A stretch of 64,000 nucleotides of DNA, taken from NCBI GenBank assembly GCA_049303675.1, contig JBAQNJ010000001.1:664711-728710 (forward strand), given 5' to 3'. Shown piece by piece: positions 23,970-54,472 of this stretch (positions are counted from its first letter, which is position 1; each line of letters opens with the position of its first letter). The translations under genes and the position numbers were made by a program. Source of the stretch: Microgenomates group bacterium. GTDB taxonomy: Bacteria > Patescibacteriota > Microgenomatia > UBA12405. The notes under the pieces are model-generated. The model made no database searches. It was given only the letters and a program-made list of their open reading frames with translations, and was not told the origin of the DNA.

Positions 23970-23991
23970 TATAATTAGTATAAAATAGATT

Positions 23992-35742: not shown

Positions 35743-37221
35743 ATGATTCAAAAATTCTCTATTTCCATTTCCTACCCTCCATTAGAAAACTCCAAGGGTA
35801 TTCCTTTTTTGGCTCAAAACCGACAATTTCAGTGGACCAATACTGGCAATGTAATTTTGCCAGTCATACCGGCTTATGGAGCCTCGGCCCTCAAAAATCT
35901 AGGTTATAAAGTCTATTGGGACGACGCCATTGCGAAGAAAATTCCTTATCAAAAATGGTTGTCTCGAATTATTAAGAGAAAACCTTCCTTAATTGCCATA
36001 GAATCCAAAACACCCACCATTAAAAGGCATTGGAAAATTATCAACGAACTAAAAACCAAGCTACCTCGCTCAATTATTGTTCTCATGGGCGATCATGTTA
36101 CTGCTTTGCCCGAGGAATCATTGCAAAATAGTCTCGTTGATTATGTTATCACTGGTGGTGACTACGATTTCATGTTACTAAATCTGGTCGACCATTTAGC
36201 CCACCAAGTCAAGTTAGAATCAGGATTTTGGTATCGAGAAAGAAAAGTTATCACAAATACAGGCAAATTTGCCCTCAAACATCATAATTTAGATACACTT
36301 CCACCCATCGATCGAGAACTAACTAATTGGAAAATATATGGTAACGATAACACCAATTTCAAATATCACCCTGGCGCTTATCTCATGACCGGCAGAGATT
36401 GTTGGTGGGGAAAATGTACTTTCTGTAGCTGGATCAGTATTTTTCCGGGTAACAACTTTCGTAATTTTTCCGTCAAGCATACGGTTGATGAAATTGAATA
36501 CATGGTCTCTCTCGGCATCAAAGAAATTTTTGATGATGCTGGCACACTTCCCATCGGTCCATGGCTTCGTGATTTTTGTCAGGAAATGATCAAGAGGGGA
36601 CTCAATCAAAAAGTAGTTATGGGCTGCAACATGCGCTTTGGTGCTCTAAATCAAGAACAATATGATCTCATGGGACAGGCCGGTTTTCGTTTTATCCTCT
36701 ATGGATTAGAATCTAGTAATCAAAATACTCTCGACAAGATTGTCAAAAATACTCAGGTAGAGGATTCCCGTAAAACTCTAATTATGGCCAAAAAAGCCGG
36801 ACTGGAGCCACATCTGACCATCATGATCGGTTACCCTTGGGAAACCAAGGCTGATGCTATAAATACCCTAAATGAGGCCAGAAGTCTATTTAAAGACGGT
36901 CTGGCTGATAGCATGCAGGCCACCATTGTCGTGCCCTACCCAGGCACCCCACTTTTCAAACAGTGTCAAGAAAATAACTGGCTCACTACCCTTGATTGGA
37001 ACGAATACGACATGCGCCATCCAGTCATGACTGGACCCATCCCCCCCCAAGAGCAGCTTCAATTGGTTCAAAGTTTATTTCATGGTATCCTCACTCCACA
37101 ATTTCTAATTAGAAAGATATTTTCCATCCGTAAGATGAGTGACCTCACTCATTTGTTCAACTATGCCATCAAATATCTCAAAAAACTCCGCGACTTCCCC
37201 CTCACTGCTCCAGCAAATTAG
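35743..37221 (+). CDS. B12-binding-domain radical SAM protein (class B-like), non-canonical cluster motif CWWGKCTFC (Cx4Cx2C)
   Basis: N-terminal Rossmann-like B12-binding-type segment. Cys codons at 36392-36394, 36407-36409 and 36416-36418. TATAGT at 35730-35735 is 7 nt before the ATG. Confidence 0.65.
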   Translation: MIQKFSISISYPPLENSKGIPFLAQNRQFQWTNTGNVILPVIPAYGASALKNLGYKVYWDDAIAKKIPYQKWLSRIIKRKPSLIAIESKTPTIKRHWKIINELKTKLPRSIIVLMGDHVTALPEESLQNSLVDYVITGGDYDFMLLNLVDHLAHQVKLESGFWYRERKVITNTGKFALKHHNLDTLPPIDRELTNWKIYGNDNTNFKYHPGAYLMTGRDCWWGKCTFCSWISIFPGNNFRNFSVKHTVDEIEYMVSLGIKEIFDDAGTLPIGPWLRDFCQEMIKRGLNQKVVMGCNMRFGALNQEQYDLMGQAGFRFILYGLESSNQNTLDKIVKNTQVEDSRKTLIMAKKAGLEPHLTIMIGYPWETKADAINTLNEARSLFKDGLADSMQATIVVPYPGTPLFKQCQENNWLTTLDWNEYDMRHPVMTGPIPPQEQLQLVQSLFHGILTPQFLIRKIFSIRKMSDLTHLFNYAIKYLKKLRDFPLTAPAN

Positions 37222-37933
37222 TACCAAATATAAAATTTATGGATTTTGGTGGACCATAAGATTGACCGCCCAATTCCTTTATCGAAAAATATTTTTTGAA
37301 TTATTGCGCCACTCCTACTCACAATATGGCGAGGATCTAATTATTGCCAGTATCCTAAATAAAAAAAATATATATTACGTCGACATTGGGGCTAATCACC
37401 CCCAAAAATTCAACAATACCTTTATGTTTTATCGTCATGGATCATCGGGTATAAATATCGAACCAAACAAATCACTCCTAAGTCAATATTTTTCCACTCG
37501 TCCCCGTGACCTCAATCTCAACCTCGCCATCTCAGACAAAAACACCTCACTGATTTTCTACAATATGTATCCTGATGTCAACTCTACTATATCCAAAACT
37601 CAATATCTTCACACCCAAAACCTGCATTCTCTTTTAATCAATAAACAAAAAATTAAAGTGAAAACTCTTCAGCATACCCTCCACAAATATCTACCCACCA
37701 ACCAACCCATTGATCTCCTCTGTATCGACACAGAAGGGCATGATTACCAAGTTTTGAAAAGTAATGATTGGTCAAAGTATTCGCCCACAGTCATCTGTAT
37801 TGAAACACAACTCCACGGACTCGAGCAGCAATATCTGTTAAAATTAGGCTATCTACTCTATGCCCAAACAAGCCTCAACAGCATCTACCTCAAAAAAGAT
37901 TCTTCTCTTTTTTCCCTCCCCACTCCCTTATGA
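37139..37933 (+). CDS. FkbM-family SAM-dependent methyltransferase
   Basis: YGEDLIIASIL...YVDIGAN...GINIEPN pattern of the FkbM (Methyltransf_21) family. Annotated start overlaps the upstream radical SAM gene by 83 nt. An in-frame TTG at 37262 would avoid the overlap. The 3' end overlaps the next radical SAM gene by 74 nt. Confidence 0.5.
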   Translation: MTSLICSTMPSNISKNSATSPSLLQQISTKYKIYGFWWTIRLTAQFLYRKIFFELLRHSYSQYGEDLIIASILNKKNIYYVDIGANHPQKFNNTFMFYRHGSSGINIEPNKSLLSQYFSTRPRDLNLNLAISDKNTSLIFYNMYPDVNSTISKTQYLHTQNLHSLLINKQKIKVKTLQHTLHKYLPTNQPIDLLCIDTEGHDYQVLKSNDWSKYSPTVICIETQLHGLEQQYLLKLGYLLYAQTSLNSIYLKKDSSLFSLPTPL

Positions 37934-39422
37934 ACGTAATTGGCATGGAGTCCCTCTCGCTCTGTTAGCCATCTCCAGAATCCTCGACCAAGAGGGTTAT
38001 GACATTAAAATTTATACTCGCTATCTTCAAAAAAACTATGAAAGAGAAATCTTAAAAAATGGTCAAAATGCCATTTGTTTAGGCATTAGTGCCATGACCG
38101 GATTCCAAATTTTTGATGGTCTAAAACTAGCTCGAAAATTTAAAAAAAAATATCCCCAAGTTCCCATAGTCTGGGGAGGCTGGCATCCCTCCATCTTGCC
38201 TCTACAAACGATTAAGGATCCCTGTGTCGATATTATTGTCAAAGGTCAGGGAGACATTACTTTTACCAAGCTTGTCCATGCTCTTCAAAACCAGCAGGAC
38301 TTACAAAAAATCAACGGCATAGTCTACAAAAAAGGCGAAAAAATTATGATCACTCCTGAGCGAGGACCGGTCGATTTATCACTTGTTCCCCATCTTCCCT
38401 ATCACTTAGTTGACGTCAAAAGTTGCACTATTCCTACCGAATATGGCCTTCGGACTGCTCCCTATATCAGTAGTTATGGCTGTCCCCATCGCTGTGCCTT
38501 TTGTGTCGAGGAAATTGTCAACAAACGTAGCTGGAAAGGTGTACCCGCACTCACTGTGGTCAATGAATGGGAAAATCTCTATCGTACCTATGGTGCCGAC
38601 TCAATAGCCGTCTATGACAGCAATTTTTTTGTAGACGAAAATCGAGTGAAATTAATATGCCAAGAAGTGATCAATAGAAAATTACCCATAAAGTGGGGCA
38701 ATGCCAATGGGCGTGCCGGCCAACTAAGTCGATACCGACCCGAGACATGGGAGCTAATGGAACAATCAGGTTGCACCATGATTTTAACTGGTGCCGAATC
38801 AGGGGATCAAAAATCCCTTGATTTCATTAGTAAAGATATGAATGTTGAAGAAATAGTCAAATTTACCCAACTTTGCCATCAACACCATATCAAAATCCTC
38901 TATTCATTTCTCGTCGGGCTTCCCTGGTCCAACCAACCCCAAGAAAATGATCAGTTCGTTGCCACCGAGTACCGTTCCACTCTCGGATTAATTGATAGAT
39001 TACTTAAAATCTGTAATCGTAACCGTTATACCTACTATGTTTTTTTACCTTACCCAGGAGCCTCACTTTACAATCGGGCTCTTAAATTGGGTCTACGCGC
39101 TCCTCAAAGTTTTAGTCAATGGACCAGTTATCTCATGTCACCTGAAAACGCCTTTGAAGAAACAGTTAGGCAGCAGTGGATAAGCCAAAAGGATGCCCGA
39201 ATGACCGCCATGCTTACTCAATATATATTTGGCATCATGGATCGCGACACTTATACCATGTTATACCCGAGACTTACCAATCTCTTTTCTCGAGTTCTCT
39301 TTACTATTGGCTATTACACTGCTTTAATTGTAGTCAGCCTCCGTTGGAAATATAAATACTTTGGTCTACCATTCGATTATTGGCTGTTTTCATTAGTTCA
39401 TCAATATGGCGGCATCATCTAA
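37860..39422 (+). CDS. B12-binding-domain radical SAM protein (class B-like)
   Basis: KKILLFFPSP...LALLAISRIL N-terminal B12-binding-like fold. Canonical SYGCPHRCAFC (CxxxCxxC). A9 tract at 38142-38150. Confidence 0.75.
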   Translation: MPKQASTASTSKKILLFFPSPLPYERNWHGVPLALLAISRILDQEGYDIKIYTRYLQKNYEREILKNGQNAICLGISAMTGFQIFDGLKLARKFKKKYPQVPIVWGGWHPSILPLQTIKDPCVDIIVKGQGDITFTKLVHALQNQQDLQKINGIVYKKGEKIMITPERGPVDLSLVPHLPYHLVDVKSCTIPTEYGLRTAPYISSYGCPHRCAFCVEEIVNKRSWKGVPALTVVNEWENLYRTYGADSIAVYDSNFFVDENRVKLICQEVINRKLPIKWGNANGRAGQLSRYRPETWELMEQSGCTMILTGAESGDQKSLDFISKDMNVEEIVKFTQLCHQHHIKILYSFLVGLPWSNQPQENDQFVATEYRSTLGLIDRLLKICNRNRYTYYVFLPYPGASLYNRALKLGLRAPQSFSQWTSYLMSPENAFEETVRQQWISQKDARMTAMLTQYIFGIMDRDTYTMLYPRLTNLFSRVLFTIGYYTALIVVSLRWKYKYFGLPFDYWLFSLVHQYGGII

Positions 39423-42181: not shown

Positions 42182-43381
42182 ATGCACCGACCCCAACTCT
42201 TAGTAATCTGTCATGTAAATTTAGGAACAAGTCTGAGTGGAGGAGATAGGATTTTTTTAAACATAATCAAATATTGGCGCAAATACTACCATATTTCTGC
42301 CCTAGCCTCACCCGAAGCTATTAATCTAATAAACCGAAATAAATTACATCCCCAGATTATTTCGACTACCAAATTACCAACCATTAGCCGACTAACCACT
42401 TTTAATCTATTTATTCATCATTCTCTCCGATTTATTACCGGCATTATCTTTTGTCTTACCCACCAGTCAATTTTAAAAAAAGCCCAATATATTTACACCT
42501 CTTCAGATTTTTATGGCGATTTTATCTTTGGGTTAATTGCCAAGTTAGTTAATCCGGCTATTGTCTGGTTTTGTGGTTACTATTTGATGGCACCAAAACC
42601 TACAAATCCAAATTCTCCATACATTATCAATAAATATCCACTTCGAGGATATATATATTATCTAGCCCAAATTCCCACCATTTTTTTTGCCAAAAAATAC
42701 GCCGATCATCTATTTGTCACCTCCGAGCCAGATGTTAAAGTATTTAAAAATAGCCACCTACCAATTAGTAAAATTCATATTATTCAGGGTGGAGTCTATT
42801 TACCAACTCCCCAACAATTATCGACTATGTTACCGCCAAGAGAACGCCAATATGACGCCTTTTTTCTCGGTCGGCTCCACTCCCAAAAGGGAATTATTGA
42901 AATGGTCGAAATCTGGAGACTTGTTGTCAATAAATACCCCACTGCCAAACTCGTAATTATTGGTGATGGCGAACTAATGATACAAATGCTGCAAAAAATT
43001 TCTAAATTAAAATTAAAAAATAACATTACTATAATTGGATTCTTAATCGGACCCGAAAAGTTCAATATCATTAAAGATAGCAAAATTGTTATTCATCCCG
43101 CCACCTACGATAGTGGCGGTATGGCCGCCGCCGAAGCGATGGCGTGGGGACTACCCGGAGTCAGTTTTGACCTTCCGGCACTCAAAACATATTATCCCAT
43201 TGGTATGATCAAAACACCCAATTTGGATATCCAAAAATTTGCTGACAACATTGTTCTGCTTCTTCGAGATCAAAAGCTGTACCACCATATCTCACAAGAT
43301 GCCCTAAAGCTAACCAGAGATGTCTGGGGTTGGGCAAAACGACTTGACAATATCTACTCTCAGATAAAGGTCAGTAGGTAG
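42182..43381 (+). CDS. Glycosyltransferase family 4
   Basis: GGMAAAEAMAWGLPGVSFDL. 399 aa. Confidence 0.65.
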   Translation: MHRPQLLVICHVNLGTSLSGGDRIFLNIIKYWRKYYHISALASPEAINLINRNKLHPQIISTTKLPTISRLTTFNLFIHHSLRFITGIIFCLTHQSILKKAQYIYTSSDFYGDFIFGLIAKLVNPAIVWFCGYYLMAPKPTNPNSPYIINKYPLRGYIYYLAQIPTIFFAKKYADHLFVTSEPDVKVFKNSHLPISKIHIIQGGVYLPTPQQLSTMLPPRERQYDAFFLGRLHSQKGIIEMVEIWRLVVNKYPTAKLVIIGDGELMIQMLQKISKLKLKNNITIIGFLIGPEKFNIIKDSKIVIHPATYDSGGMAAAEAMAWGLPGVSFDLPALKTYYPIGMIKTPNLDIQKFADNIVLLLRDQKLYHHISQDALKLTRDVWGWAKRLDNIYSQIKVSR

Positions 43382-44847
43382 GTTCTAGTAAACGCTCCCA
43401 ATTTTATTCCAAAGCCTCTCCATCCATCCCGCTTGACTATTTCCCTAATCGTCCCTACAAACCCACTATGCCTTATTCTCGTTTTTAAATACAACATCGC
43501 TGCTTTTGGTAAGTTACTTTCAATTTCCTTTTTACTATAGTCAGGATATTGATAGACAGCGGTATTACCATTGTATTTGCGCCAATCACTCGTCAACAGA
43601 TAGCCCTTATCCATCAACAAATTGTAAAATGGAGTTCCGGGCTGAGGTGTACACACCGATGCCTGAAAATCCCACAATAAACCTTCTTTTGTCAGCTTAT
43701 TTATCAAGTCTAGGGTTTTGCCATCTTCCACTACATTTGAATCAGGTGAACCAAAAGTGAAGGTAGCGTACATCCTCATCCCCACCTTTTTTGCCATCTT
43801 CAACACCTCAATTATTCGATCCACATTCACATTTTTTACCATTCCTCTGGCTGTTTTTACTGACGCTGTCTCAATCCCGATTCTGATTTTATAATAACCA
43901 GCCTTTCTCATCATCGCCATCATCTCCTCGTCAAATGTCCAATAGCCACACATAGCATCGTACTTCAAGTCTGTCAGCTTATTGTCGATGATCGCTTGAC
44001 ACAACTCCATCACAAATTTTTTATTCGAATTGTGGTTTTCCTCATCAAAAAAGATTCCCTCCATCTCTGGATATTTATTTTTCAAATACTTTATTTCCGC
44101 AATGACGTCAGCCACCTCTCTAACTCTAAAATTTGGTTTTCCATAATAAGTTTGCCGTGCCACACAAAAATTGCAGTTCATTGGGCAGCCTCGAGTAGCA
44201 AAAAATTCAATTTCTTTATAATCACAGCCGCCAATTCTTGTATAGTTTATCCGACTAATATCCTTATCTTCCGGAAAAGGCAATTTTGTCACATCCAACA
44301 GCTCCTTAACTGGATTGGGATATATACCGTCAATTTTTTTGGCTGATTGGCCTTCGATTAACTTAACCACTGCTGGCTCATATTCACCTGTAGCTACAAA
44401 ATCAATTCCATCTGCTAGTACATCACTGGGGAAAGCCGTTGGATGTTGGCCACAAAAAATCAATTTTGTCCCAAATTTTTTCTTAAACTTCAGGGCAAAT
44501 CTCAAGTCATATTTATATACCACCGATGAAGTCTCCAATACCAAATAATCAGGTCTGAATGATTTGTATTTCTCAAAATATGCCTCCGCTGTCAACTCTT
44601 CGTAATTTCCATCTACCATTTTTACTTTCAATTTTTTGTTCTGTTTCAACATTGAAGATAGATATCCCAGTTCATAAGGATAAAAGTTGAAAGATTTAGT
44701 CTTACCCACACAAGTTGACCACCTAGATGGAAACAGAATATAATGATTTCCTTCATCATCCAGACCGACAGAGTTACACACCAATACTTTTTTTGTTATT
44801 TTCATAAAATATGATAACATCTTTTTATTATCTACTACAGCTGTCAT
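43360..44847 (-). CDS. B12-binding-domain radical SAM protein (class B-like)
   Basis: TRGCPMNCNFC canonical motif. N-terminal B12-binding-like region. ATG at 44847. Confidence 0.75.
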   Translation of the reverse strand: MTAVVDNKKMLSYFMKITKKVLVCNSVGLDDEGNHYILFPSRWSTCVGKTKSFNFYPYELGYLSSMLKQNKKLKVKMVDGNYEELTAEAYFEKYKSFRPDYLVLETSSVVYKYDLRFALKFKKKFGTKLIFCGQHPTAFPSDVLADGIDFVATGEYEPAVVKLIEGQSAKKIDGIYPNPVKELLDVTKLPFPEDKDISRINYTRIGGCDYKEIEFFATRGCPMNCNFCVARQTYYGKPNFRVREVADVIAEIKYLKNKYPEMEGIFFDEENHNSNKKFVMELCQAIIDNKLTDLKYDAMCGYWTFDEEMMAMMRKAGYYKIRIGIETASVKTARGMVKNVNVDRIIEVLKMAKKVGMRMYATFTFGSPDSNVVEDGKTLDLINKLTKEGLLWDFQASVCTPQPGTPFYNLLMDKGYLLTSDWRKYNGNTAVYQYPDYSKKEIESNLPKAAMLYLKTRIRHSGFVGTIREIVKRDGWRGFGIKLGAFTRTYLLTFI

Positions 44848-44858
44848 AATTAATTATG
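44845..44858. promoter_or_regulatory. Perfect 14-nt palindrome CATAATTAATTATG containing both divergent start codons (44847 on - strand, 44856 on + strand) and CATAAT boxes 5 nt from each
   Basis: Reverse complement of 44845-44858 is identical to itself. Only 8 bp separate the two paralogous radical SAM genes. Confidence 0.4.
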
Positions 44859-46418
44859 AAAACAGACGTTATTCTAATATTTGTCGGTCAGTATAACTCC
44901 AAAAACCCCTATCATCACTACGTTTCCCCACTCGGAATTGCCAATGTATCCGCCTATTTAAATAAGCAAAAGATAACAACTAAACAAGTAGACTTACGTC
45001 TACTACCCGATTTTAATGCCTTAAAGAAAATCCTTCTCCAGCGTAAACCCACAATGATCGGTTTTTCCCAACTCACTACCGAAGCAGATTTGATCGACAA
45101 TCTTGTCGAGCAAGTCAATACACTTCTCCCTAAAACAAAATTAATAATCGGTGGGCCTCACCCATCAGTTTTACCTCGTGAATCCGCTAGCATTCCCCAC
45201 ATTCTGGCTGCAGTTTACGGGGAAGGTGAGATCACTGCTTACAATTTATTTAAGTCATTTCAACAACACACCCCACTATCAAAGATTAAAGGTATAGCCT
45301 ATCGACACAAATCTGGAGAAATTATCCTCAATCCTCCACAAGAATTTATTAAAAACTTAGATATATTACCTTTTCCCGATCGCCACATTCTCAATTCAGG
45401 GGACTATTTTAGCCAAGCATACGACCTATTTTTTCCCATGAAATACCCCTATGCCAACATTTTTGTCAGTCGCGGTTGTCCCGCCATGTGCACCATGTGT
45501 CAACCCACAATTGATAAATTATTTGGTCGCCCCTTTAGATTCCGTAGCGCCAAAAACGTCATCACTGAGATAAAAATGTTAATCAAAAAATATCATGTCC
45601 AGAGTATCATATTTTGGGATGACACCCTCACTGCTAACAAAAAATGGATGGAGGAATTTACCTCTCTCATTGTTGCCGAAAAATTAAATTTTGACTGGTG
45701 GTGTTATTCACGGGTCAATTACATCAATCCAGAAGTTCTTAAAATAGTCAAACAGGCAGGTTGTAAAATGATCTGTTTTGGTATTGAATCTGGGTCAGAC
45801 CGCATTCTCAAAGTAATCAACAAGGGTACCAACGCCGCCCAGAATGAGTATGCTATCAATCAATGCCACAAATACGGTATTCTCGCCAACGCCAATATGA
45901 TGATTGGTATGCCCACCGAAACACTTGACGATGTCATCATGACAGACCAGCTTTTGGCTCGCACCAAACCAGACATAGTTTGGGCTTCAGTTTTATCACC
46001 ACTTCCAGGAACATATCTAGGCGACGCCTTTATGCGTAGCGATGAATTCCAGCGAACCTCAGCCCACAATAATTGGAGTGAACTAATCCGCGCCCAGACA
46101 GGCAAGGCCAAGATAAACAATACTATCGACATTAAATACATCATAAAATACCAATCCCGATGGCATTATACTCGATTTAAACCCAGCCTCCTATTCAAAA
46201 AATATTATCGTGATATCTGTGCCAGTCGAATTGCCTGCCACCTTACTTCTCACCATCCTGAGAGAATATTTCACGAGTTTATTATCGGCCCATTAATCGA
46301 ATTAACTAGACACTTTTATTGGCTACTCTACTACTATTGGAACTATGAAATGTTCCCTCAACCTCTACCACTCCATGTTGAGCCATTAGGGCCGAAACGA
46401 TCCAAAGTATTGGGATAG
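44856..46418 (+). CDS. B12-binding-domain radical SAM protein (class B-like)
   Basis: SRGCPAMCTMC canonical motif. N-terminal B12-binding-like region. Long C-terminal tail. Confidence 0.75.
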   Translation: MKTDVILIFVGQYNSKNPYHHYVSPLGIANVSAYLNKQKITTKQVDLRLLPDFNALKKILLQRKPTMIGFSQLTTEADLIDNLVEQVNTLLPKTKLIIGGPHPSVLPRESASIPHILAAVYGEGEITAYNLFKSFQQHTPLSKIKGIAYRHKSGEIILNPPQEFIKNLDILPFPDRHILNSGDYFSQAYDLFFPMKYPYANIFVSRGCPAMCTMCQPTIDKLFGRPFRFRSAKNVITEIKMLIKKYHVQSIIFWDDTLTANKKWMEEFTSLIVAEKLNFDWWCYSRVNYINPEVLKIVKQAGCKMICFGIESGSDRILKVINKGTNAAQNEYAINQCHKYGILANANMMIGMPTETLDDVIMTDQLLARTKPDIVWASVLSPLPGTYLGDAFMRSDEFQRTSAHNNWSELIRAQTGKAKINNTIDIKYIIKYQSRWHYTRFKPSLLFKKYYRDICASRIACHLTSHHPERIFHEFIIGPLIELTRHFYWLLYYYWNYEMFPQPLPLHVEPLGPKRSKVLG

Positions 46419-47169
46419 TCACTATTTGGAAAACCACCATTAGTCTCCGCGGCAAATGAATATTAAATTTCGTCAAAATAGAATACCCTAGCACTTGACG
46501 ATACTCCAACATGTTATTTTTTACTAAAATATCAGTATAACCACATCTTTCAAACAGTCTAATCAGTCCATGATCGCTAAACAAAAATTTATGATACGGA
46601 TAATCAGCATGGTACCAATTTATTCCAGCCAAGTCAGCCTCCCATGAATTAACATTTGGTACCCGCACTACCAATTTAGCGCCATTATTCAAATATCTAG
46701 TCAATTTAACCAAAAACGCGTCTGGGTTCTCAATATGCTCTAATACTTGATACATCAACACCACATCAAATTTCATCTTGAAGCTATCCAAACTAGCAAA
46801 TACTTTACCTTTTCCTATTTTGTTAGATAGATTGTCGCGGGCCCACTTTGACTTATCGATTCCATACACTTTATATAATCTTTTGTTTAATTCGTTTATC
46901 ATTTTTCCCCCACCAAAACCTATCTCCAATATTTTATCAGTCGATTTCAAGTTCAAAGTCCGATATCTATCCCAAAATGACAGCCAGTCGATAATCCCCA
47001 TCCACCAGACATTTACCCCCCGAGTATAATATTTTCCCTGATACAGTTGGCTTTCTGCCACTTTTTTCAATAACCTTAAACTGCCACACTCAGGGCAACG
47101 ATAATATTTTTTATATACCGTATCTCCCTCCTCTTGACTACCGCACACCCAGCATTTTAACTTTTTCAT
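46306..47169 (-). CDS. Class I SAM-dependent methyltransferase with N-terminal C4 zinc ribbon
   Basis: CWVCGS...CPECGS zinc ribbon. ILEIGFGGGKMINEL...VLMYQVLEHIENP...LVVRVPN. Convergent 113-nt overlap with 44856..46418. Confidence 0.55.
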   Translation of the reverse strand: MKKLKCWVCGSQEEGDTVYKKYYRCPECGSLRLLKKVAESQLYQGKYYTRGVNVWWMGIIDWLSFWDRYRTLNLKSTDKILEIGFGGGKMINELNKRLYKVYGIDKSKWARDNLSNKIGKGKVFASLDSFKMKFDVVLMYQVLEHIENPDAFLVKLTRYLNNGAKLVVRVPNVNSWEADLAGINWYHADYPYHKFLFSDHGLIRLFERCGYTDILVKNNMLEYRQVLGYSILTKFNIHLPRRLMVVFQIVTIPILWIVSALMAQHGVVEVEGTFHSSNSSRVANKSV

Positions 47170-48061
47170 AATGATACCCTTGTGACTTCCATAATATCAC
47201 CATTATCTGCATAACCATATTTGGAAAAACATTATATCTGTTAATATTTTTTTCCAACCACAATTGTGGCCCATTCCAAATCTTCCATGCCCCAACATCC
47301 AATATCATTTTGCCGATACCGCTCTTAACCAAAAAAGGTAAAAAATTAATCGGCAACTTCGACTCTAGGTGGAAAAGGCCCCGACCATGACTTATAAATC
47401 TCGATTTAATTTCCGCCAAACCCAACTCATGATAGTGCCAGACAACCGCCAGTCCATCATAAAATAATTTTAAACCCTTTGTTTTGGCTCTATAGGCAAA
47501 CTCAATATCTTCCCACGCCGCAGTCGGAAATTCTTCGCAAAATTTTATATCATTTTGCCTTACGAACTCATTTTTCATCGATAAATTACAAGTCCACAAG
47601 TAATACCAGGGGATCTGCATAATTCTCTTTTTATCAGTAAACAAATAGTTAAAATGTAATCCACTTTGGCCTACCAACCATTTCATTGCCGGAATATTGA
47701 CAGTATCGGGATGGTTTTGAGTAAATCCCACCATCGCCCTAGAGATTTCCGGTCGCCTTTGGTGAAACATCAAATGTCTTTCTATAAAATTATCGTCGAC
47801 AAAACTATCATCATTTAAAAACAAGAGTAACTTTCCTCTTGCCCTTTGCATCGCCTCATTTCTCGCTTTGGCTGGACCATTCGCCCCTTCCACCACAATA
47901 ATTTCATCTGTTTTATTATCAATCTGCTGGTTTAGTAATCTCAGTGCTTCATGCAAGACATCACTCCGGTCCAAAGTCGGAATTATTACACTCAACCTTA
48001 TTCGTGTCTTAGTTTTTTCCATACCCATAAAATTCGCAAGACCACAAATATAATCGGCCAA
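47138..48061 (-). CDS. Glycosyltransferase family 2
   Basis: RLSVIIPTLDRSD...FLNDDSFVDD. Codon at 48061 is TTG. ATGs at 48028 or 48022 (MGMEKTK / MEKTK) are more likely starts. Confidence 0.6.
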   Translation of the reverse strand: MADYICGLANFMGMEKTKTRIRLSVIIPTLDRSDVLHEALRLLNQQIDNKTDEIIVVEGANGPAKARNEAMQRARGKLLLFLNDDSFVDDNFIERHLMFHQRRPEISRAMVGFTQNHPDTVNIPAMKWLVGQSGLHFNYLFTDKKRIMQIPWYYLWTCNLSMKNEFVRQNDIKFCEEFPTAAWEDIEFAYRAKTKGLKLFYDGLAVVWHYHELGLAEIKSRFISHGRGLFHLESKLPINFLPFLVKSGIGKMILDVGAWKIWNGPQLWLEKNINRYNVFPNMVMQIMVILWKSQGYHYEKVKMLGVR

Positions 48062-49392
48062 GAAATTATCTTGGGCAATTTCATAGCAAACGCCGTCCCT
48101 AGCAACATTTTTCGCAAGACAATCATGTCCACCGACGACAAATATTTTGTCTTCATATTACTAGTATTACCGTTGAACTTATTCCAATCAAAATCCTCTA
48201 TTAATCCGTTCTTCAGTGCATCATCAAACATTTCTGTCCCAGGATACGGGGTAATTGTACTAAAGCCCACTGACTCAGGATTGAGTTTGACCAGATATTC
48301 AAATGTATTCGACATAGTTCTCAAATTCTCATCAGGCAATCCAATTATCATCAAAAAATGTAATTTTACTCCTACTTCTAGGGCCGTCTGTCTAATTTTA
48401 GTCACCGCATCTAGGCTTACCCCTGGTTTTCCTTGATAAATTATTAGTTCCTGATCCAGTGTCTCAACTCCAACATTTATTCCCATACATCCTGCCTTTT
48501 TCATTATCTTTAACAGCTCTGGTGTCAACACATTAATTCTCGTCTCACACCACCAATCAAACTTTAGTTTATTTTTTATGATCAACTGACACAGTTCCTC
48601 AGTTCTCTTATTATCGAGGGTAAATGTCGCATCTCTAAACAAAATACTTCGAATACCCAGATCCACTATATTCTTTATTTCCAAAATTATTCGATGATTA
48701 CTCATTGCCCGCCATGCTTTTCCTTGAACTAGGGGATAAGGACAATAAAATCCGCAAGGATAGGGACAGCCACGGCTAGTCTGCATGGTAGTCACTACTC
48801 CGGGCAACAAGACATATTTATATAAATTAGATTTAGTCAATTCCCGTGCTGAAATCGGTAAATCATCCAGATTTTTGATTCTATCCTCGATGGTAATCGG
48901 CTCAAACACCACCTTACCTCGCGACAAATATATGCTGGCTGTATTACGCTTTTTTTCAACATATTCATGGATAGTCAAATCACATTCACCAAACAAGATT
49001 CTCTCTGCACCGCTATCCCATAGTGCTTTTTCCAATATTTGTCGGTAACTAATCCCAGTTTTGATAATCACTCGAATATTTTTATATTTATCGATCAATT
49101 TTCTGACAAACATTGTGTCCTCAGTTAGTGTCGGTAATGCCATTCCACACAAAACCAAATCAATTTTGTGAGTCACCATGTATTTTTCAAAATAGCCAAA
49201 GTCGTCAATACTCTCAGCAATCGCATCTACAAAATACACCCCATACTTTTTCTTTATCAAAGTCGCCGCCGAATTCAACAAATCAATCGGCGGCAAAACC
49301 ACCCCTTCCCCACCACTATAGCCCAAACCACCTGCCATATCTCTATTAATTGTCTTGTCACTTGAGGGTGGGTTTACTATCAATATATTCAT
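47998..49392 (-). CDS. B12-binding-domain radical SAM protein, non-canonical motif CPYPCGFYC (Cx3Cx3C)
   Basis: MNILIVNPPSS N-terminus typical of this class. Cys cluster encoded about 48735-48785 on the - strand. Confidence 0.6.
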   Translation of the reverse strand: MNILIVNPPSSDKTINRDMAGGLGYSGGEGVVLPPIDLLNSAATLIKKKYGVYFVDAIAESIDDFGYFEKYMVTHKIDLVLCGMALPTLTEDTMFVRKLIDKYKNIRVIIKTGISYRQILEKALWDSGAERILFGECDLTIHEYVEKKRNTASIYLSRGKVVFEPITIEDRIKNLDDLPISARELTKSNLYKYVLLPGVVTTMQTSRGCPYPCGFYCPYPLVQGKAWRAMSNHRIILEIKNIVDLGIRSILFRDATFTLDNKRTEELCQLIIKNKLKFDWWCETRINVLTPELLKIMKKAGCMGINVGVETLDQELIIYQGKPGVSLDAVTKIRQTALEVGVKLHFLMIIGLPDENLRTMSNTFEYLVKLNPESVGFSTITPYPGTEMFDDALKNGLIEDFDWNKFNGNTSNMKTKYLSSVDMIVLRKMLLGTAFAMKLPKIISWPIIFVVLRILWVWKKLRHE

Positions 49393-51107
49393 TGTTTACT
49401 TCGTGCTCTTAATTGTAACAGTGCCTCCATTGCTTGTTTATGGTTTGGGTATGCCCTGAGTATCCCCTCTAAGACTGCTATCGCCTGACTATTTTCTCCC
49501 ATTTGAGACAACACCACTGCCAAGACATAATTGACAGTTGGATCATTCGGGCTAACTTTGAGTGCTTTGTTCACATCCTCCAATGCCTGGTCAATTTTTT
49601 TTTCAGTAAGATCGATATTAATTAAGCTTAAATATGTTTGGTACAAAGTTGGACTATAATAAAGGGCAGTATTATAGCTTTCCCTAGCCAAATCCAATCT
49701 GCCCATCTTGAAAAATATATTCGCCCGATTATGGAAGGCATCGGCATAGTTTGGTTTGACAATAGTTGACTGAGTAAATCCCTTGATCGCATTATCATAT
49801 TGCTTTAGCTTATCGTAATCATCCCCAATGTTGTTCCAAGCATTATGTGAATTGGGAGACACCTGACAGGTATTTACCCACAACAAATGATTTGTAGTCC
49901 AATCTTTATTTCTCTGAACTGTTCTAATACTGTAAAAAACCATCAACAATACCAGCAACAACCCTGCCACATATTTATTAAAATTTCCAATTTTAGTGAA
50001 AATTAGCCCCAGCAACAGACAAAATCCCAGTGAACCCAAATAGGCATATCTCTCCGCCACTAGCCAGCTCACTTTTACCGGTGCCATCGACGGCAGAATC
50101 GCCAATAATATAAATAATAAAGCAAATGAATATCTCCTATCCACCCACGAAAAATATATAATAATCCCCAAATACGACAACAATATTAGCCAATTTAGCC
50201 AAACCGGAAAAATATACATCGTGTGGTATAAAGTCAGATCTATTGGCAGCCACAGTAACTGGAGATACTTAGCAATTCCTGTTGGATACTGAAAAAATGG
50301 ATTATAAAAAATACTTTCCGATATATTTGTTCCCGAGTTTACTATTGTCACCCGCGACACGATATGAGGCCAGAAAAATACCAAGACGAGCAACATTGGC
50401 AACAATAACCACGGCCAATATTTGAACCACTTATTATGCCTAATATCAATTTTGAACAACCATAAATACAAGGGAATAATAAAAAATAATGAAAACGGTC
50501 TCGGATTGTCTGTCAAAAACCCTAGTATAAAAAACAGCCACATTCCTCCAAAATATTCGATTTTTTCAGTCTCGACAAACTTGATAAACAATAGTAGGGA
50601 CATTAATACATACATGGCTATCAACAGATACGGCTTGCCCGATATCCAGGTTACCGCCTCCACATGGATCGGATGAACAATAAAGATTGACATCGTCAAC
50701 CACGCCACCACTTTCCCAAACAGATGATAAACCAAGACAAATGCCAAAACACAAGTCACCATAAAAATTACCAAACTACTTAAATGATATTGAAGTGGAG
50801 CCACCCCAAACACTTTGGCCACCATGCTATGGATAAAATAAGTAGTTGCCCCACCTCTAAAGGCATATTGCCATTCTGTTAATTCAGGATTATTCAAAAT
50901 AGTCGCATAATCATCCGACACAAAATCTCCCTGCATTCCATTAGCAAACACCACAATTATCGCCAATAATATAATAGCCAAAAAAACAATATTCTCCTTA
51001 ATAATCTTCAAAAATTGCAACTTTTCCACTGGGCCAGTGTATGACTCTATCACCCTGACACTTTCTTCATGTATTTTTCTCAATTTCTTTAATTTTCTCT
51101 GGGACAT
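49389..51107 (-). CDS. TMTC-like protein: N-terminal polytopic membrane (GT-C-like, loop motif DFVSDDYATILNNP) domain plus C-terminal TPR repeats
   Basis: C-terminal about 200 aa form tandem about 34-aa TPR-like repeats (AWNNIGDDY..., ADAFHNRANIFF..., ...). ATG at 51107 is preceded by TAAAAT (51118..51113) at 5 nt. The ORF-track start 51161 is TTG. Confidence 0.5.
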   Translation of the reverse strand: MSQRKLKKLRKIHEESVRVIESYTGPVEKLQFLKIIKENIVFLAIILLAIIVVFANGMQGDFVSDDYATILNNPELTEWQYAFRGGATTYFIHSMVAKVFGVAPLQYHLSSLVIFMVTCVLAFVLVYHLFGKVVAWLTMSIFIVHPIHVEAVTWISGKPYLLIAMYVLMSLLLFIKFVETEKIEYFGGMWLFFILGFLTDNPRPFSLFFIIPLYLWLFKIDIRHNKWFKYWPWLLLPMLLVLVFFWPHIVSRVTIVNSGTNISESIFYNPFFQYPTGIAKYLQLLWLPIDLTLYHTMYIFPVWLNWLILLSYLGIIIYFSWVDRRYSFALLFILLAILPSMAPVKVSWLVAERYAYLGSLGFCLLLGLIFTKIGNFNKYVAGLLLVLLMVFYSIRTVQRNKDWTTNHLLWVNTCQVSPNSHNAWNNIGDDYDKLKQYDNAIKGFTQSTIVKPNYADAFHNRANIFFKMGRLDLARESYNTALYYSPTLYQTYLSLINIDLTEKKIDQALEDVNKALKVSPNDPTVNYVLAVVLSQMGENSQAIAVLEGILRAYPNHKQAMEALLQLRARSKQ

Positions 51108-51112
51108 AGTCC

Positions 51113-51134
51113 ATTTTAGCAAAAAAATGCTAAA
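51113..51134. promoter_or_regulatory. Candidate -10 box (TAAAAT, - strand) overlapped by perfect inverted repeat TTTAGCA-N6-TGCTAAA (51115-51134); possible operator
   Basis: Read directly. The inverted-repeat arms are 7 bp and the spacer is A6. Confidence 0.3.
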
Positions 51135-51464
51135 CTCATCCAGCTGAAAGATATACTCCAACCACTAATACTCACCGTTTATCGACTCGAAGGCTATAGA
51201 TTTTTAGCCACCAGAACTAGCCACCCGTCTTTTTCTCAAATAATCCTTCGGCCACTAGACCAGAAAGATTCGTTTTTGACCCATCAGGCAGTCACCTTCT
51301 TACACAATAATCTCTGTGATCAATGTATTTGTTCTTCACATGTTCGCCTCGGTGACAAAGCACTCCATTGCCAAAATCCCCAAAGACATCCTAGTTATCG
51401 GACCAATCTTGATTTAAATTGTTACCTGCCTCAAAACATAGCCGAATATCGTCTCCACTGGTAA

Positions 51465-52358
51465 CTACATCTTCCACGCAAGACGATAGCCCAGTTCCTT
51501 TTTAGCTTTCTCCGATTTAAAACTCATGTTTACCAGTTTGGCCATTGCCAACCATTTTACCAATCCAGCTGGCAACCTAAACCTCAAATATTTTTTACCC
51601 AATATATGAGACAACTTTTGCAAATAATCAATTACCCGTATATTTTGGCCACCTAATATATATTCTTCGCCCGATTTTCCCGCCTCATATGCCAAAACAA
51701 TTCCCATCCCCAGATCATGAACGTCCACAATATTGATAATTCTCTCTTTACTCCCAATCGCCGCCATTATCCCCCCAGGAATTCCACCACCTATATTCTG
51801 CCATATCCAAGCCAAAAACTTACTGTTAATATTATTACTATATTTTTTCCACGAATTTACGTCCACCACAATACTCGGCATCACTGTCACCACCTTTCTC
51901 TTCTGCGCTCGTATTACTTTCAACGCCTCGATCTTTGTCTGAATATATTTGTCTTTTTTAGCATCTTCTCGGAGAGCCGCCTTTTCGTCGCCTGTCTTCT
52001 CACCTGTATCTGCATAGACTACTACGCTAGACACCATCACCAGTTTTGTCTTCTCATCTGCCATATTCATAATTCTTCCAACAGTCTTCACATTAATTTC
52101 CCAAAATTCTTCCCACGATTTAGTTTTATCCATTGTTGCCGCACAATGAATTAGTCCGTCAACATTTCTCAACATTTTTTTCAAAACAATCACATTTGTC
52201 AAATCTCCTTCAACAACTTCAACTTCCTTAGCTGTCCAGCCATGTTTTCGACTGTGTGCCAATATTCTCACCCCAAAACCTTTCTCCAGCAATATTTTAA
52301 CCACTACCCGCCCCACAGTCCCTGTCGCCCCTGTCACTGCCACAATTCTTTTATTCAT
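51465..52358 (-). CDS. NAD(P)-binding epimerase/dehydratase-like SDR (NmrA/atypical SDR type)
   Basis: IVAVTGATGTVGRVVV (TGxxGxxG Rossmann motif) at the N-terminus using ATG 52358. The ORF-track start 52397 is TTG. Confidence 0.6.
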   Translation of the reverse strand: MNKRIVAVTGATGTVGRVVVKILLEKGFGVRILAHSRKHGWTAKEVEVVEGDLTNVIVLKKMLRNVDGLIHCAATMDKTKSWEEFWEINVKTVGRIMNMADEKTKLVMVSSVVVYADTGEKTGDEKAALREDAKKDKYIQTKIEALKVIRAQKRKVVTVMPSIVVDVNSWKKYSNNINSKFLAWIWQNIGGGIPGGIMAAIGSKERIINIVDVHDLGMGIVLAYEAGKSGEEYILGGQNIRVIDYLQKLSHILGKKYLRFRLPAGLVKWLAMAKLVNMSFKSEKAKKELGYRLAWKM

Positions 52359-52380
52359 CAATGCATTATATAATAGTTCT
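52359..52380. promoter_or_regulatory. Bidirectional leaderless promoter: overlapping opposing TATAAT boxes within ATTATATAAT (52365-52374), each 6 nt from its ATG (52358 on - strand, 52381 on + strand)
   Basis: Read directly. Confidence 0.4.
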
Positions 52381-53181
52381 ATGATCCAGCTAATCAAAGA
52401 AATTCATTCTATCGTCAAATGGCGCGAGTTGCTCTGGCAGATGGTGGGTCGGGAAATCAAAGCTCGCTACAAACAATCAATTCTTGGCTACTTTTGGGTT
52501 ATTCTCAATCCACTTGCCCAAATGCTAGTCATGTCTTTTGCTTTTTCCATTATCATGCGCATTCCTACCAATGCCGCCGGCAACATTCCCTATTCCATCT
52601 TCTTGTTTGTCGGCCTCTTACCATGGACACTTTTTTCCAACTCTCTTTCTTTTTCTTGCAGCTCTCTCGTCAATTCTGCCTCGCTAATTACTAAAATATA
52701 TTTCCCTCGGACAATCCTAGTTATCGCTACCATTCTTGCCAAAATTATTGATTTTATTTTTGCCCTAACTATTTTGATTATCTATATGGTCATTTATCAA
52801 ATTCCCATTAATTTCAACATACTCTGGATATTTCCTATTTTTATCATTCAACAAATATTTACTCTCGGTTTATCACTTTTTATTGCCGCTGCCAATTTGC
52901 TTTACCGCGACATCCAATATTTACTCAATTTGTTACTAGTTTTGTGGATGTATCTCACCCCCGTTATTTATCCTGCCGATATCGTCCCCGACAAATACAG
53001 GTTTGTCTTTCAACTCAATCCTATGGCCGTAATTATTAACGCCTATCGTCAAACCGTCCTCGGCGGTGGCACCCCCAACATCTCCAGCCTAGTTATTGCC
53101 CTAATTCTCTCAGTTTTCATGCTCTTTATCGGCTTATCCTATTTCAAGTCCCGTGAAAAAATCTTCGCGGATAACATCTAA
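52381..53181 (+). CDS. wzm: ABC-2 type polysaccharide/teichoic-acid exporter permease (Wzm/TagG/KpsM-like)
   Basis: GREIKARYKQSILGYFWVILNPL signature of ABC-2 permeases. Six TM helices. 266 aa. Confidence 0.75.
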   Translation: MIQLIKEIHSIVKWRELLWQMVGREIKARYKQSILGYFWVILNPLAQMLVMSFAFSIIMRIPTNAAGNIPYSIFLFVGLLPWTLFSNSLSFSCSSLVNSASLITKIYFPRTILVIATILAKIIDFIFALTILIIYMVIYQIPINFNILWIFPIFIIQQIFTLGLSLFIAAANLLYRDIQYLLNLLLVLWMYLTPVIYPADIVPDKYRFVFQLNPMAVIINAYRQTVLGGGTPNISSLVIALILSVFMLFIGLSYFKSREKIFADNI

Positions 53182-53182
53182 C

Positions 53183-53698
53183 ATGTCACCAATAAAACCA
53201 AAAACCTACGCTTTTATTGACAGCCAAAATCTTAATCTTGGTGTCAAGAGTCAGGGTTGGTCCCTTGACTGGAGTAAATTCCGACAATATCTCCGGAATA
53301 AATTCAACGTCTCAAAAGCTTATATATTCATTGGTTACAAGCCGGGAAACGAGTCTCTCTACACCACTCTTCAACAAAATGGATTTGTAATAATTCTAAA
53401 ACCAACTTTAGAATTGCCCAACGGCACTGTTAAAGGTAATGTCGACGCTGAACTAGTTTTGCATACTATGATCGAATATCCCCATTTTCAAAAAGCGATA
53501 ATCGTTTCTGGTGACGGAGATTTCAGGTGCCTAGTCGAGTATCTATCTCAAAAAAAGAAATTGTTACACGTCTTAACTCCCAACAAGTTTTATTCTAGAT
53601 TATACAAACCTTTTTCTGGTTATATTATTAGAATTGATATACTAAAAAATAGTCTACAACAAAAAAAGACTGGCATCGGCGGTCGGTCGAAACCTTAG
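53183..53698 (+). CDS. NYN-domain (LabA-like, PIN-fold) predicted ribonuclease
   Basis: YAFIDSQNLNLG ... IVSGDGDF pattern of NYN domains. ATG 53183 is 1 nt after the wzm stop. Confidence 0.55.
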   Translation: MSPIKPKTYAFIDSQNLNLGVKSQGWSLDWSKFRQYLRNKFNVSKAYIFIGYKPGNESLYTTLQQNGFVIILKPTLELPNGTVKGNVDAELVLHTMIEYPHFQKAIIVSGDGDFRCLVEYLSQKKKLLHVLTPNKFYSRLYKPFSGYIIRIDILKNSLQQKKTGIGGRSKP

Positions 53699-53740
53699 GC
53701 TTATCCAGTCATCGTGATAAACAATTATATAAAATATTCC

Positions 53741-54472
53741 ATGAAAAATCAAGCCAACCCACCCATCGTCATAAAATTTGATCATGTCACCAAAGACTTT
53801 TCACACAATAATCAAAAAACATTCAAGGAATTTCTCCCCGCCCTATTCCTAGGGGAGAAAACTGTCGATCGCTTTACTGCACTCCAAGACATCTCATTTG
53901 AAATCAAAAAAGGCGAATGTATCGGTATCATTGGTCCAAACGGTAGCGGCAAGTCAACTATCCTCAAACTAATTGCTCGAGTCATGAGTCCAAGTAGCGG
54001 TACTGTCCATGTCCATGGCAAGGTCTCACCCCTCATCGAGCTTGGAGCGGGCATGCACCCAGAGTTAACTGGTCGGGAAAATATTTATCTTAATGGGGCA
54101 ATATTAGGCCTTCATCGACGTGAAATAGATGCCAATCTCCAGGGTATTATTGATTTTTCTGAGCTGTCCGAGTTTATTGACCAGCCCATCAAACATTACA
54201 GTTCCGGCATGTATATGCGCCTAGCATTTAGTATTGCTATTCATGTTAATCCCGAGATATTAATTGTCGACGAAATTCTGGCAGTCGGGGATCCTGAATT
54301 TCAGACAAAATGTATTACTAGAATGAACCAATTCAAAAAAAAAGGTGTTACCACCGTCTTCGTTTCTCATGATCTGGATCTAGTTTACAAGTTTTGCACC
54401 AGAGTCATTAAACTAAACCATCCTCGCGTTGTAAATAGTAGTTTACACATTACAACTCAGACACTTAAATGA
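53741..54472 (+). CDS. wzt: ABC transporter ATP-binding protein (Wzt/TagH-like, short form without C-terminal carbohydrate-binding domain)
   Basis: Walker A GPNGSGKST. Signature YSSGMYMRLAFSIA. Walker B ILIVDE. H-loop VSHD. TAAAAT (53730-53735) 5 nt before ATG 53741. Confidence 0.75.
   Translation: MKNQANPPIVIKFDHVTKDFSHNNQKTFKEFLPALFLGEKTVDRFTALQDISFEIKKGECIGIIGPNGSGKSTILKLIARVMSPSSGTVHVHGKVSPLIELGAGMHPELTGRENIYLNGAILGLHRREIDANLQGIIDFSELSEFIDQPIKHYSSGMYMRLAFSIAIHVNPEILIVDEILAVGDPEFQTKCITRMNQFKKKGVTTVFVSHDLDLVYKFCTRVIKLNHPRVVNSSLHITTQTLK

Follow-up and report, generated by a model that had tools for sequence, protein, structure and literature searches.

The subject of this analysis is a gene on the minus strand (49389..51107) of a 64-kb stretch of DNA from a Microgenomates group bacterium (contig JBAQNJ010000001.1); the whole of this stretch is called the window below, and all positions refer to it. 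By its sequence, the 572-aa product is a divergent bacterial variant of the TMTC-type glycosyltransferases of the GT-C fold, and its closest relatives are all proteins of Candidatus Shapirobacteria, in which the gene belongs to the conserved core of a Wzm/Wzt surface-glycan locus. Our best explanation, to which we give a probability of about 0.6, is that this GT-C enzyme of the TMTC branch would act on the outside of the membrane, transferring sugar from a polyprenyl-phosphate carrier, as a core component of the Wzm/Wzt locus to which an accessory cassette has been added. It draws on homology, fold, motif conservation, synteny statistics and promoter conservation. The original prediction, made from the letters of the DNA alone, took the gene for the head of a compact four-gene unit at 46306-51161 that would first glycosylate and then modify its target; four open reading frames (ORFs) do run co-directionally on the minus strand there, although, as we discuss below, the interpretation as such a unit did not hold.

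The TMTC-like protein and its membrane domain

The protein begins with a basic N-terminus and a first transmembrane (TM) helix, directly followed by the loop GDFVSDDYATILNNP (residues 60-74), which had been correctly pointed out from the sequence, and its N-terminal membrane domain comprises aa 1-418 (49854-51107) with about 11 TM helices. Pfam models matching the full protein are TPR_1 (E 4.6e-19) along with many other models of tetratricopeptide repeats (TPRs), and PMT_2 (E 1.2e-7), which extends over TM2-TM7. The C-terminal TPRs are present as predicted, though their extent is about 155 aa, with 10 helices and roughly 5 repeats, and not about 200 aa, and they occur in 71/71 scanned relatives.

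The specific relation to TMTC comes from comparisons of TPR-free N-terminal domains with those of animal TMTC1-4, so named by NCBI/UniProt and all containing PF08409. Aligned by hhalign, the profile of our family and the animal proteins gave a probability of 100% and an E-value of 1.5e-43 over 362 colinear columns, from query 44-413 to template 10-438, that is, along the whole membrane domain. A hidden Markov model (HMM) of the family scored 17 TMTC N-terminal domains at 105-153 bits, as against 24.5 bits or less for the other GT-C paralogs of the window; the reciprocal TMTC HMM gave 100.9 bits to our protein and matched no other window ORF, and BLASTP of the TPR-free domain found a sponge TMTC3-like protein and a fish TMTC3 over 428-438 columns with 76 and 66 bits. 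By these measures the homology of the membrane domain is specific to TMTC and goes beyond a generic GT-C resemblance.

Structure prediction, proposed earlier as a check, also returned a GT-C fold. The AlphaFold2 (AF2) model of aa 1-418, built on an alignment of 72 diverse relatives, contains 11 long helices, with a predicted local distance difference test (pLDDT) of 92.1 and a predicted template-modelling score (pTM) of 0.90. Its top matches in a Foldseek search of the PDB, about 30 in number, are all GT-C enzymes (STT3, ArnT, AglB, PglB, ALG12/ALG9, AftB, Emb, DPY19, Pmt1/2/4), with probabilities near 1 and template-modelling scores of 0.45-0.50, and no solved TMTC structure is among the matches in the PDB copy searched. 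The TMTC/GT-C assignment of the original prediction is thus upheld by the hhalign and HMM scores and by structural neighbours that are GT-C only. An O-antigen ligase or a transporter, which had been named as the contrary outcome for the membrane domain, did not emerge, and both are rejected by the fold and the TMTC homology. The full-length model (pLDDT 77.7) was uninformative on the membrane domain, its Foldseek matches being dominated by TPR proteins, and a PDB sequence search with the full-length protein likewise returned TPR proteins only.

With animal TMTC1-4 (CAZy GT105) our protein shares the colinear layout, in which an 11-TM GT-C domain at the N-terminus precedes TPRs at the C-terminus, homology that covers the membrane domain and reaches into the TPR junction (RNxDW...NAxxNNxG), and the elements DD, HPIHxEAV, NP, PxxP-like and ERxxY. 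It differs in its smaller size, with about 5 TPRs against at least 9 in the animal proteins, and in its setting, which is bacterial, with polyprenyl instead of dolichyl carriers, no cadherin targets and a Wzm/Wzt glycan locus. ArnT (GT83) and PMT/Pmt (GT39) have in common with it the PMT_2 match, the GT-C fold and the catalytic Asp in the first outer loop, and ArnT (5F15/5EZM) is among the best structural matches of the N-terminal domain; however, a TPR domain stands here in place of the MIR domain of PMT or the periplasmic domain of ArnT, and in sequence the protein is far more similar to TMTC than to either. TMEM260, an animal O-mannosyltransferase with distant bacterial homologues, shows the same succession of an 11-TM GT-C domain and TPR-like repeats (PMC10214176), but families of its type are not among the Pfam matches to our membrane domain, where PMT_2 is the sole one, and the sequence points to TMTC.

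The motif states were read from the hhalign alignment, using the list of TMTC motifs and the roles of M1 and M7 given by Eisenhaber et al. (PMC7801869), and residue conservation was derived from 72 diverse family sequences with identity down to 24%. M1, the DD pair of the first extracytoplasmic loop and the putative catalytic acid, is aligned to TMTC FVFDD and kept as D65-D66 (codons at 50910..50915, minus strand), invariant down to the lowest identity. HPIHTEAV is kept as HPIHVEAV with an invariant E150, the NP part of DNPA is kept as N269 and P270, M6 PxxP is kept in the altered form P339...P343, with a spacing one residue wider, and RNxDW at the TPR junction is kept as R399...W403. M7 ERxxY, whose arginine binds the phosphate of the lipid carrier, lies before TM10 and is kept as E352, R353 and Y356 (codons of E352-R353-Y354-A355-Y356 at 50040..50054, minus strand; aligned to TMTC VVAERVLY). 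Invariant throughout the 72 sequences are D65, D66, E150, W154, Y160, P288, P343, R353, Y354 and R399, and E352 is nearly so. By the published TMTC models, the motifs kept are those of the catalytic acids and of the carrier-phosphate binder, and the motifs lost are those of the mannose and metal contacts.

Because the number of helices is odd, the N-terminus is basic and the order is colinear with the TMTC topology (PMC7801869), we infer that the N-terminus is inside and that all the conserved motifs together with the approximately five TPRs are on the outer side; the motifs falling in outward loops are D65-D66, HPIHVE150AV, N269-P270, Y294-H295, P339...P343, E352-R353-x-x-Y356 and R399-N-x-D-W403. 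We propose that the enzyme would take a sugar from a polyprenyl-phosphate carrier, the phosphate of which would be held by R353 while D65/D66 would serve as the catalytic acid pair, and would pass it on, outside the membrane, to an acceptor offered by the TPR domain. Because SHKSYRP, the motif of mannose contact, is deleted, the donor is probably a sugar other than mannose, and we may tentatively suggest, at odds somewhat short of even, that the acceptor is a secreted or surface protein, as in the animal analogy.

A number of observations weigh against this explanation and have to be taken into account. The Foldseek E-values are weak (8e-3 to 1). The TMTC signature of Pfam, DUF1736 (PF08409, TM7-TM8 loop), gave no match at E <=10 on the isolated membrane domain and is found neither among the frequent Pfam families of the 72 relatives nor in the precomputed Pfam annotation of bacterial relatives, so that the HMM search proposed in the original prediction succeeded for TPR and for TMTC profiles and failed for DUF1736. 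Compared with animal TMTC, a deletion of 16 residues in extracytoplasmic loop 1 removes M2 SHKSYRP (mannose contact), M4 KE(T/Q)xxT is replaced by D-N-P-R203, M5 DW is replaced by Y294-H295 though the loop aligns, and M3 RxD is only partial (K158-P-Y160). Three of the seven TMTC motifs are thus lost or replaced and one is incomplete; in the published TMTC models M2 and M4 contact mannose, phosphate and metal (PMC7801869), and the chemistry and the donor may differ. Further, the protein acceptor is an analogy, as TPR domains also scaffold polysaccharide machineries, and that the gene is paired with Wzm/Wzt almost everywhere would suit an action on the exported glycan no less well. Finally, a partner of the enzyme in the form of a polyprenyl-phosphate sugar synthase or a GtrA-type flippase was not identified.

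The loss of the metal and sugar-contact motifs M2, M4 and M5 could even be taken to mean that the protein has no catalytic activity and serves the export machinery as a TPR scaffold anchored in the membrane, all the more as TPR proteins often scaffold polysaccharide export. Yet the DD pair, the arginine of ERxxY and about ten more loop residues are invariant at only 24-30% identity, a pattern that would not be expected without catalysis, and we therefore consider a dead scaffold very improbable.

The family to which the protein belongs is large. A search with the membrane domain returned 21,454 cluster representatives at E <=1e-3, and the distant relatives (~30% identity) that carry names come from metagenome-assembled genomes (MAGs) of Patescibacteria, Roizmanbacteria and Omnitrophota. 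Bacterial relatives are named only 'tetratricopeptide repeat protein', 'hypothetical protein' or, by JGI, 'protein O-mannosyl-transferase'; we found no paper characterising a bacterial TMTC-like member, and the existence of prokaryotic TMTC homologues is mentioned, no more, in PMC7801869, all of which agrees with the earlier statement that the bacterial counterparts are uncharacterised. A bacterial homologue of 572 aa with the DD and ERxxY core and a minimal TPR arm is a tractable surrogate for work on the structure and mechanism of TMTCs, a group in which defects of TMTC3 lead to human brain malformations (PMC7801869, PMC10214176).

Synteny across Shapirobacteria and the promoter of the gene

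The genomic neighbourhood was compared using one genome per species, in 74 loci (numbered with the prefix L) that contain an ortholog of the TMTC-like gene at 41-69% identity; their flanks were scored with the proteins of the window, and the count for Wzm was limited to loci with a flank of at least 4 kb. In the window the locus is of the Wzm/Wzt ABC-transporter-dependent glycan type, with an adjacent pair of ABC-2 permease and ABC ATPase (52381-54472) accompanied by cytoplasmic glycosyltransferases: the Wzm-type permease (52381..53181, plus strand; ABC2_membrane E 2.3e-17) is divergent from the GT-C gene and the dehydrogenase gene upstream of it, and its partner is the Wzt-type ATPase (53714..54472, plus strand; ABC_tran E 1.1e-22). 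Among the relatives, Wzm is located upstream of the TMTC-like gene in 41/42 loci, nearly always divergently, with Wzt beside it. Wzm is the most conserved neighbour of the gene (69-82% identity in most loci), and Wzt reaches 62-79% in relatives. The genes lying behind the TMTC-like gene in the window recur in few loci, and it is this difference from the 41/42 loci with Wzm that makes the TMTC-like gene a core gene and the genes behind it a mobile, lineage-specific accessory cassette, with a tendency to settle beside the TMTC-like gene. The surface chemistry of bacteria of the candidate phyla radiation (CPR) is thought to mediate host attachment and is, to our knowledge, essentially unknown, and the present data would mark in these bacteria an outer-face glycosyltransferase that is highly conserved, has a promoter of its own and goes together with a Wzm/Wzt exporter.

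In 37/55 loci a gene of the CofD/YvcK family stands directly upstream of the TMTC-like gene and in the same direction; this CofD gene is absent from the window, and it overlaps the start of the GT-C gene in the loci inspected (L004, L005, L022). This arrangement suggests a previously undescribed functional link between CofD/YvcK and the TMTC-like protein. Examples of the CofD gene are L004 7033-8001, L005 7013-8047 and L022 9034-9996, to which 34 other loci are added. Some of the orthologs come under unexpected names: many MAG records titled 'uncultured Gammaproteobacteria bacterium' (L013, L014, L016, L018, L022 and about 25 others) contain orthologs of 44-55% identity with Shapirobacteria-type synteny, and one record is titled Methanoperedens and one Bacteroidales, titles that look like placeholders or the result of mis-binning.

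The constancy of the Wzm/Wzt neighbourhood, in 41/42 species while the surrounding glycosyltransferases vary, permits another interpretation, namely that the TMTC-like protein is the ligase of the locus, which would transfer the exported polyprenyl-diphosphate glycan en bloc to a surface-protein or cell-wall acceptor selected by the TPRs, and would thereby be an O-oligosaccharyltransferase of a new class on a TMTC scaffold, replacing ligases of the WaaL, PglL or LCP type. The gene is single-copy, with 50-70% identity and a nearly invariant TPR surface, as would be expected of a ligase, because such an enzyme recognises only a conserved reducing end and a conserved acceptor; the contact motif for a monosaccharide (mannose) is deleted, and the oligosaccharyltransferases STT3, AglB and PglB are among the best structural matches. 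The window, in contrast to known Wzm/Wzt and Gtr/GacL systems, has no recognisable ligase of the Wzy_C/WaaL, LCP or PglL type, and in the search for Wzy_C/WaaL and LCP ligases the unannotated polytopic ORFs of the 64 kb were included; several of these unannotated polytopic proteins could nevertheless be the true ligase. It has to be considered as well that the sequence relatives of known chemistry (TMTC, and ArnT and PMT of the PMT_2 clan) all use single sugars linked to a monophosphate, and that the protein has no WWDYG-type or other signature of oligosaccharyltransferases. Taken together, we regard a ligase as unlikely, while, if it were true, animal TMTCs would descend from a bacterial surface-glycan ligase.

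Returning to the proposed glycosyltransferase that would use a polyprenyl-phosphate sugar, its gene appears to have a promoter of its own. An extended -10 element, TGCTAAAAT (51113..51121, minus strand), precedes the ATG at 51107 by 5 nt. In the comparison of 54 orthologous loci with a homology-anchored start, TAnAAT occurs 5-7 nt before the ATG in 47/54 and 3-12 nt before it in 51/54, and the TG-extended form TGnTAnAAT in 45/54, where the background of the extended motif, 1.3e-4 per position in these loci, leads to an expectation of ~4e-4 per three-position window. The anchored starts are ATG in 53/54 cases, and the exception, L075, reads GTT, which suggests that its start is mis-set. Where the promoter stretch is overlapped by CofD, the DNA consensus is retained in spite of changes in the amino acids that it encodes (A/D/G/V, K/R, M/I), which speaks for a constraint on the -10 element at the level of DNA. 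We predict from these sequences that the TMTC-like gene has its own promoter and that its transcript is leaderless or nearly so.

A similar geometry, TAnAAT 5-7 nt before the start, mostly without TG, is seen at the first genes of other transcripts in the L003-L079 orthologs, namely Wzm (24/53), CofD (31/48) and GT4a (12/24); internal genes show it seldom or never (Wzt 0/10, GT2b 0/19, GT4b 0/9, MT11 1/16). Since it is common at first genes and not at internal ones, the leaderless type of promoter would be a habit of the lineage, perhaps the norm in Shapirobacteria, and the TMTC-like gene would head a transcript of its own; the strongly conserved TGnTAnAAT 5-7 nt before the ATG offers a case on which leaderless expression can be tested in this lineage. 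A generic sigma-70 scan of 51108-51464 yielded no -35/-10 pair. The original prediction had described a leaderless promoter overlapped by an inverted repeat, and only the first part of this description can be maintained: the sole inverted repeat nearby is an imperfect 11-nt palindrome (51136-51151, 82%) around CAGCTG, which is situated upstream of the -10 element and has no counterpart seen in relatives, so that a repeat over the promoter is rejected. The non-coding spacer of 357 nt (51108-51464) is unusual in this tightly packed locus. It is free of ORFs, a CofD remnant could not be detected in it and Rfam gave no match at E <=1; the candidates of a CofD pseudogene remnant or a known RNA are rejected accordingly.

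The accessory cassette

Behind the TMTC-like gene follow a radical S-adenosylmethionine (SAM) enzyme of the AprD4 family, a putative sugar 1,2-diol dehydratase of 464 aa (47998..49392, minus strand; NCBIfam and PDB 6FD2), a GT2 glycosyltransferase of GT-A fold (47138..48061, minus strand; Pfam Glycos_transf_2 E 7e-13) and a SAM-dependent methyltransferase of 287 aa (46306..47169, minus strand; Methyltransf_23 E 2.5e-20). The identities of the last two agree with the original prediction, including the zinc ribbon of the methyltransferase, which is formed by four N-terminal cysteines, C6-x2-C9...C25-x2-C28 (47086-47154). The predicted overlap of stop and start between the GT-C and radical SAM genes is found as ATGA at 49389-49392 (TGA of the former, ATG of the latter). 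The radical SAM and GT2 genes overlap by 25 nt if GT2 begins at ATG 48022, which is the likely true start (294 aa) as judged from the 293-aa ortholog in L001, or by 64 nt from the alternative TTG 48061; GT2 and methyltransferase genes overlap by 32 nt. To this set we add a short-chain dehydrogenase/reductase (SDR) of the NAD-dependent epimerase/dehydratase family (51465..52397, minus strand; Pfam Epimerase E 2.6e-21; likely start ATG 52358), the proposed reductase partner of the radical SAM enzyme.

The radical SAM gene had been described as a B12 enzyme, and this did not stand. Its best NCBIfam model is rSAM_AprD4 (NF033070; E 1.6e-74), and since its 251 bits are below the 500-bit equivalog cut-off of this model, we consider it a relative of AprD4 and not an equivalog, probably with a different substrate. 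Against AprD4 itself (PDB 6FD2) it aligns with E 1.6e-54 over aa 3-423 to 9-421, the next PDB match being at 36 bits. Its cluster motif (aa 209-217, 48742-48768) is the unusual CX3CX3C, with GCPYPCGFYCPYPL aligned to GCPYPCRFYCPYPL of AprD4 in the common stretch GCPYPCxFYCPYPL, and the motif is kept in five orthologs. AprD4 is a radical SAM 1,2-diol dehydratase that is cobalamin-independent and does not bind cobalamin (PMC12931638), and it works with the NADPH reductase AprD3 in deoxygenating a sugar carbon (PMC5461906, PMC12931638); it belongs to an antibiotic (apramycin) pathway and was called the sole radical SAM dehydratase in 2017 (PMC5461906). The likeness to the AprD4/AprD3 system may extend to a reductase, for which the SDR gene nearby is the candidate; the differences are the location in a surface-glycan locus of a CPR bacterium instead of an aminoglycoside cluster, the lower score and an additional C-terminal hydrophobic tail. 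An enzyme of AprD4 type together with an SDR in a surface-glycan cassette suggests that radical deoxygenation also tailors envelope sugars.

The B12-binding Pfam domain (PF02310) has no match in the 47998-49392 product, whereas four radical SAM paralogs of the window do match it (E 3e-15, 3e-5, 5e-11 and 1e-8), though only partly above the Pfam cut-off; a B12-dependent methylase is therefore rejected for the cassette enzyme, given also its similarity to AprD4. These four paralogs (35743-37221, 37860-39422, 43360-44847 and 44856-46418) have HpnJ, BchE and PhpK-like methylases as their best NCBIfam matches and are probably C-methylases of the glycan. For two of them, 37860-39422 and 43360-44847, relatives have orthologs with 60-87% identity. 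The gene at 44856-46418 lies on the plus strand, convergent to the methyltransferase gene on the minus strand with an overlap of 113 nt (46306-46418) and no terminator-like site between them.

Across the relatives the cassette is neither widespread nor fixed in its order, and an SDR accompanies the AprD4-like gene in 6/6 loci with readable flanks (five relatives and the window), being positioned upstream of the GT-C gene in the window, L006 and L007 and directly after the radical SAM gene in L020, L021 and L022. A conserved four-gene order, as had been anticipated, is not what was found: the full succession of GT-C, radical SAM, GT2 and methyltransferase genes, at >=38% identity, is present in 2/74 species loci, and the gene directly downstream of the TMTC-like gene is on the opposite strand (convergent) in 47/62 loci. 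An AprD4-like gene follows the GT-C gene in five loci only (L006, L007, L021, L022, L045), orthologs of GT2 and methyltransferase at >=38% identity are found in L006 and L007 only, L021 and L022 show a looser four-gene order with an inserted SDR, and L020 has the entire cassette, as rSAM-SDR-GT2-MTase-rSAM (rSAM, radical SAM; MTase, methyltransferase), upstream of the TMTC-like gene.

The radical SAM enzyme and the methyltransferase, and only these two, terminate in hydrophobic segments: aa 434-457 in the former, beyond the part aligned to AprD4, and a TM-like segment at aa 243-267 in the latter, where three orthologs also have a hydrophobic tail. Other radical SAM paralogs have no such tail, and none of the radical SAM, GT2 and methyltransferase proteins has a signal peptide-like N-terminus. 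The tails suggest that these two enzymes work at the membrane, on a lipid-linked sugar. The chemistry of radical SAM enzymes, the NDP-sugar-dependent activity of GT2 and methylation with SAM belong to the cytoplasm, while the motifs of the GT-C enzyme are extracytoplasmic, and a scheme in which glycosylation by the GT-C enzyme precedes modification by the other three is for this reason topologically unlikely; nor are the four genes supported as a conserved functional unit. If the genes are coupled at all, modification would come first and transfer last. We propose that the cassette (radical SAM, GT2, methyltransferase and the upstream SDR) would act earlier, on the cytoplasmic side and probably on a lipid-linked sugar: the AprD4-type enzyme and its SDR reductase would remove a hydroxyl, GT2 would add a sugar, the tail-anchored methyltransferase would methylate, and a deoxy or methylated sugar would result. 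Our inferences concern the donor and the acceptor, what the cassette acts on and in which direction any coupling would run.

A stricter form of such coupling would make the genes one decoration system of the three-component Gtr/GacL kind, in which GT2 makes a polyprenyl-phosphate sugar, the AprD4-like enzyme with SDR and the methyltransferase tailor it at the inner face, and after flipping the GT-C enzyme caps or branches the exported polysaccharide with a deoxy, methylated sugar. Wzm/Wzt pathways and three-component systems (PMC11127046) have in common with our locus the adjacent Wzm/Wzt, cytoplasmic GT2/GT4 enzymes with methyltransferases and an outer-acting GT-C enzyme, and the pairing of GT2 with GT-C is a hallmark of the latter systems (PMC11127046). 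The four genes overlap head to tail, the cassette adjoins the GT-C gene on its strand, upstream or downstream, in 6/6 cassette-bearing species, and the membrane-anchoring tails suit lipid-linked substrates. However, about 90% of the orthologs are without the cassette, so that the GT-C enzyme cannot depend on it; GT2 is without predicted TM helices, does not match polyprenyl-phosphate sugar synthases and only weakly resembles polysaccharide GT2s of the EpsD/HpsN type (79 bits with the NCBIfam EpsD-like model, far below its cut-off); and neither a GtrA-like flippase nor a GtrB-type synthase was identified in the locus. The GT-C enzyme also carries TPRs, which are not known as a feature of Gtr/GacL enzymes. 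Hence we find a dedicated system of this kind quite unlikely and retain the core TMTC-like transferase with a separable cassette.

The glycan island around the gene

The entire window is one glycan-biosynthesis island, AT-rich with ~39% GC. It contains at least nine polytopic GT-C paralogs of PMT_2 type as well as YfhO-like and GT87-like membrane proteins, many GT2 and GT4 enzymes, several methyltransferases, a Wzx-like flippase, the Wzm/Wzt ABC exporter and five paralogous radical SAM enzymes. The PMT_2-type array extends over 18883-31975, with 1445-5138, 25625-27220 and 61441-63564; its members are ~480-710 aa long and six of them are mutually 23-35% identical, and the YfhO-like (14531-16891) and GT87-like (20493-21650) proteins come in addition. 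Such a density of outer-face glycosyltransferases is exceptional.

The gap between Wzm and Wzt looks like a hotspot of variable cargo within a transporter operon. In the window it is occupied by an NYN-domain gene (53153-53698), and in relatives by a CofD gene, a pair of Fic/RhuM and 23S-rRNA-IVP genes, two NYN copies or an uncharacterised ORF of 162 aa (L001 6311-8025, L003 4217-5179, L004 3653-4141, L021 6617-7850). Throughout the window the plus strand has a strongly negative GC skew (-0.08 to -0.44), though it carries most of the genes.

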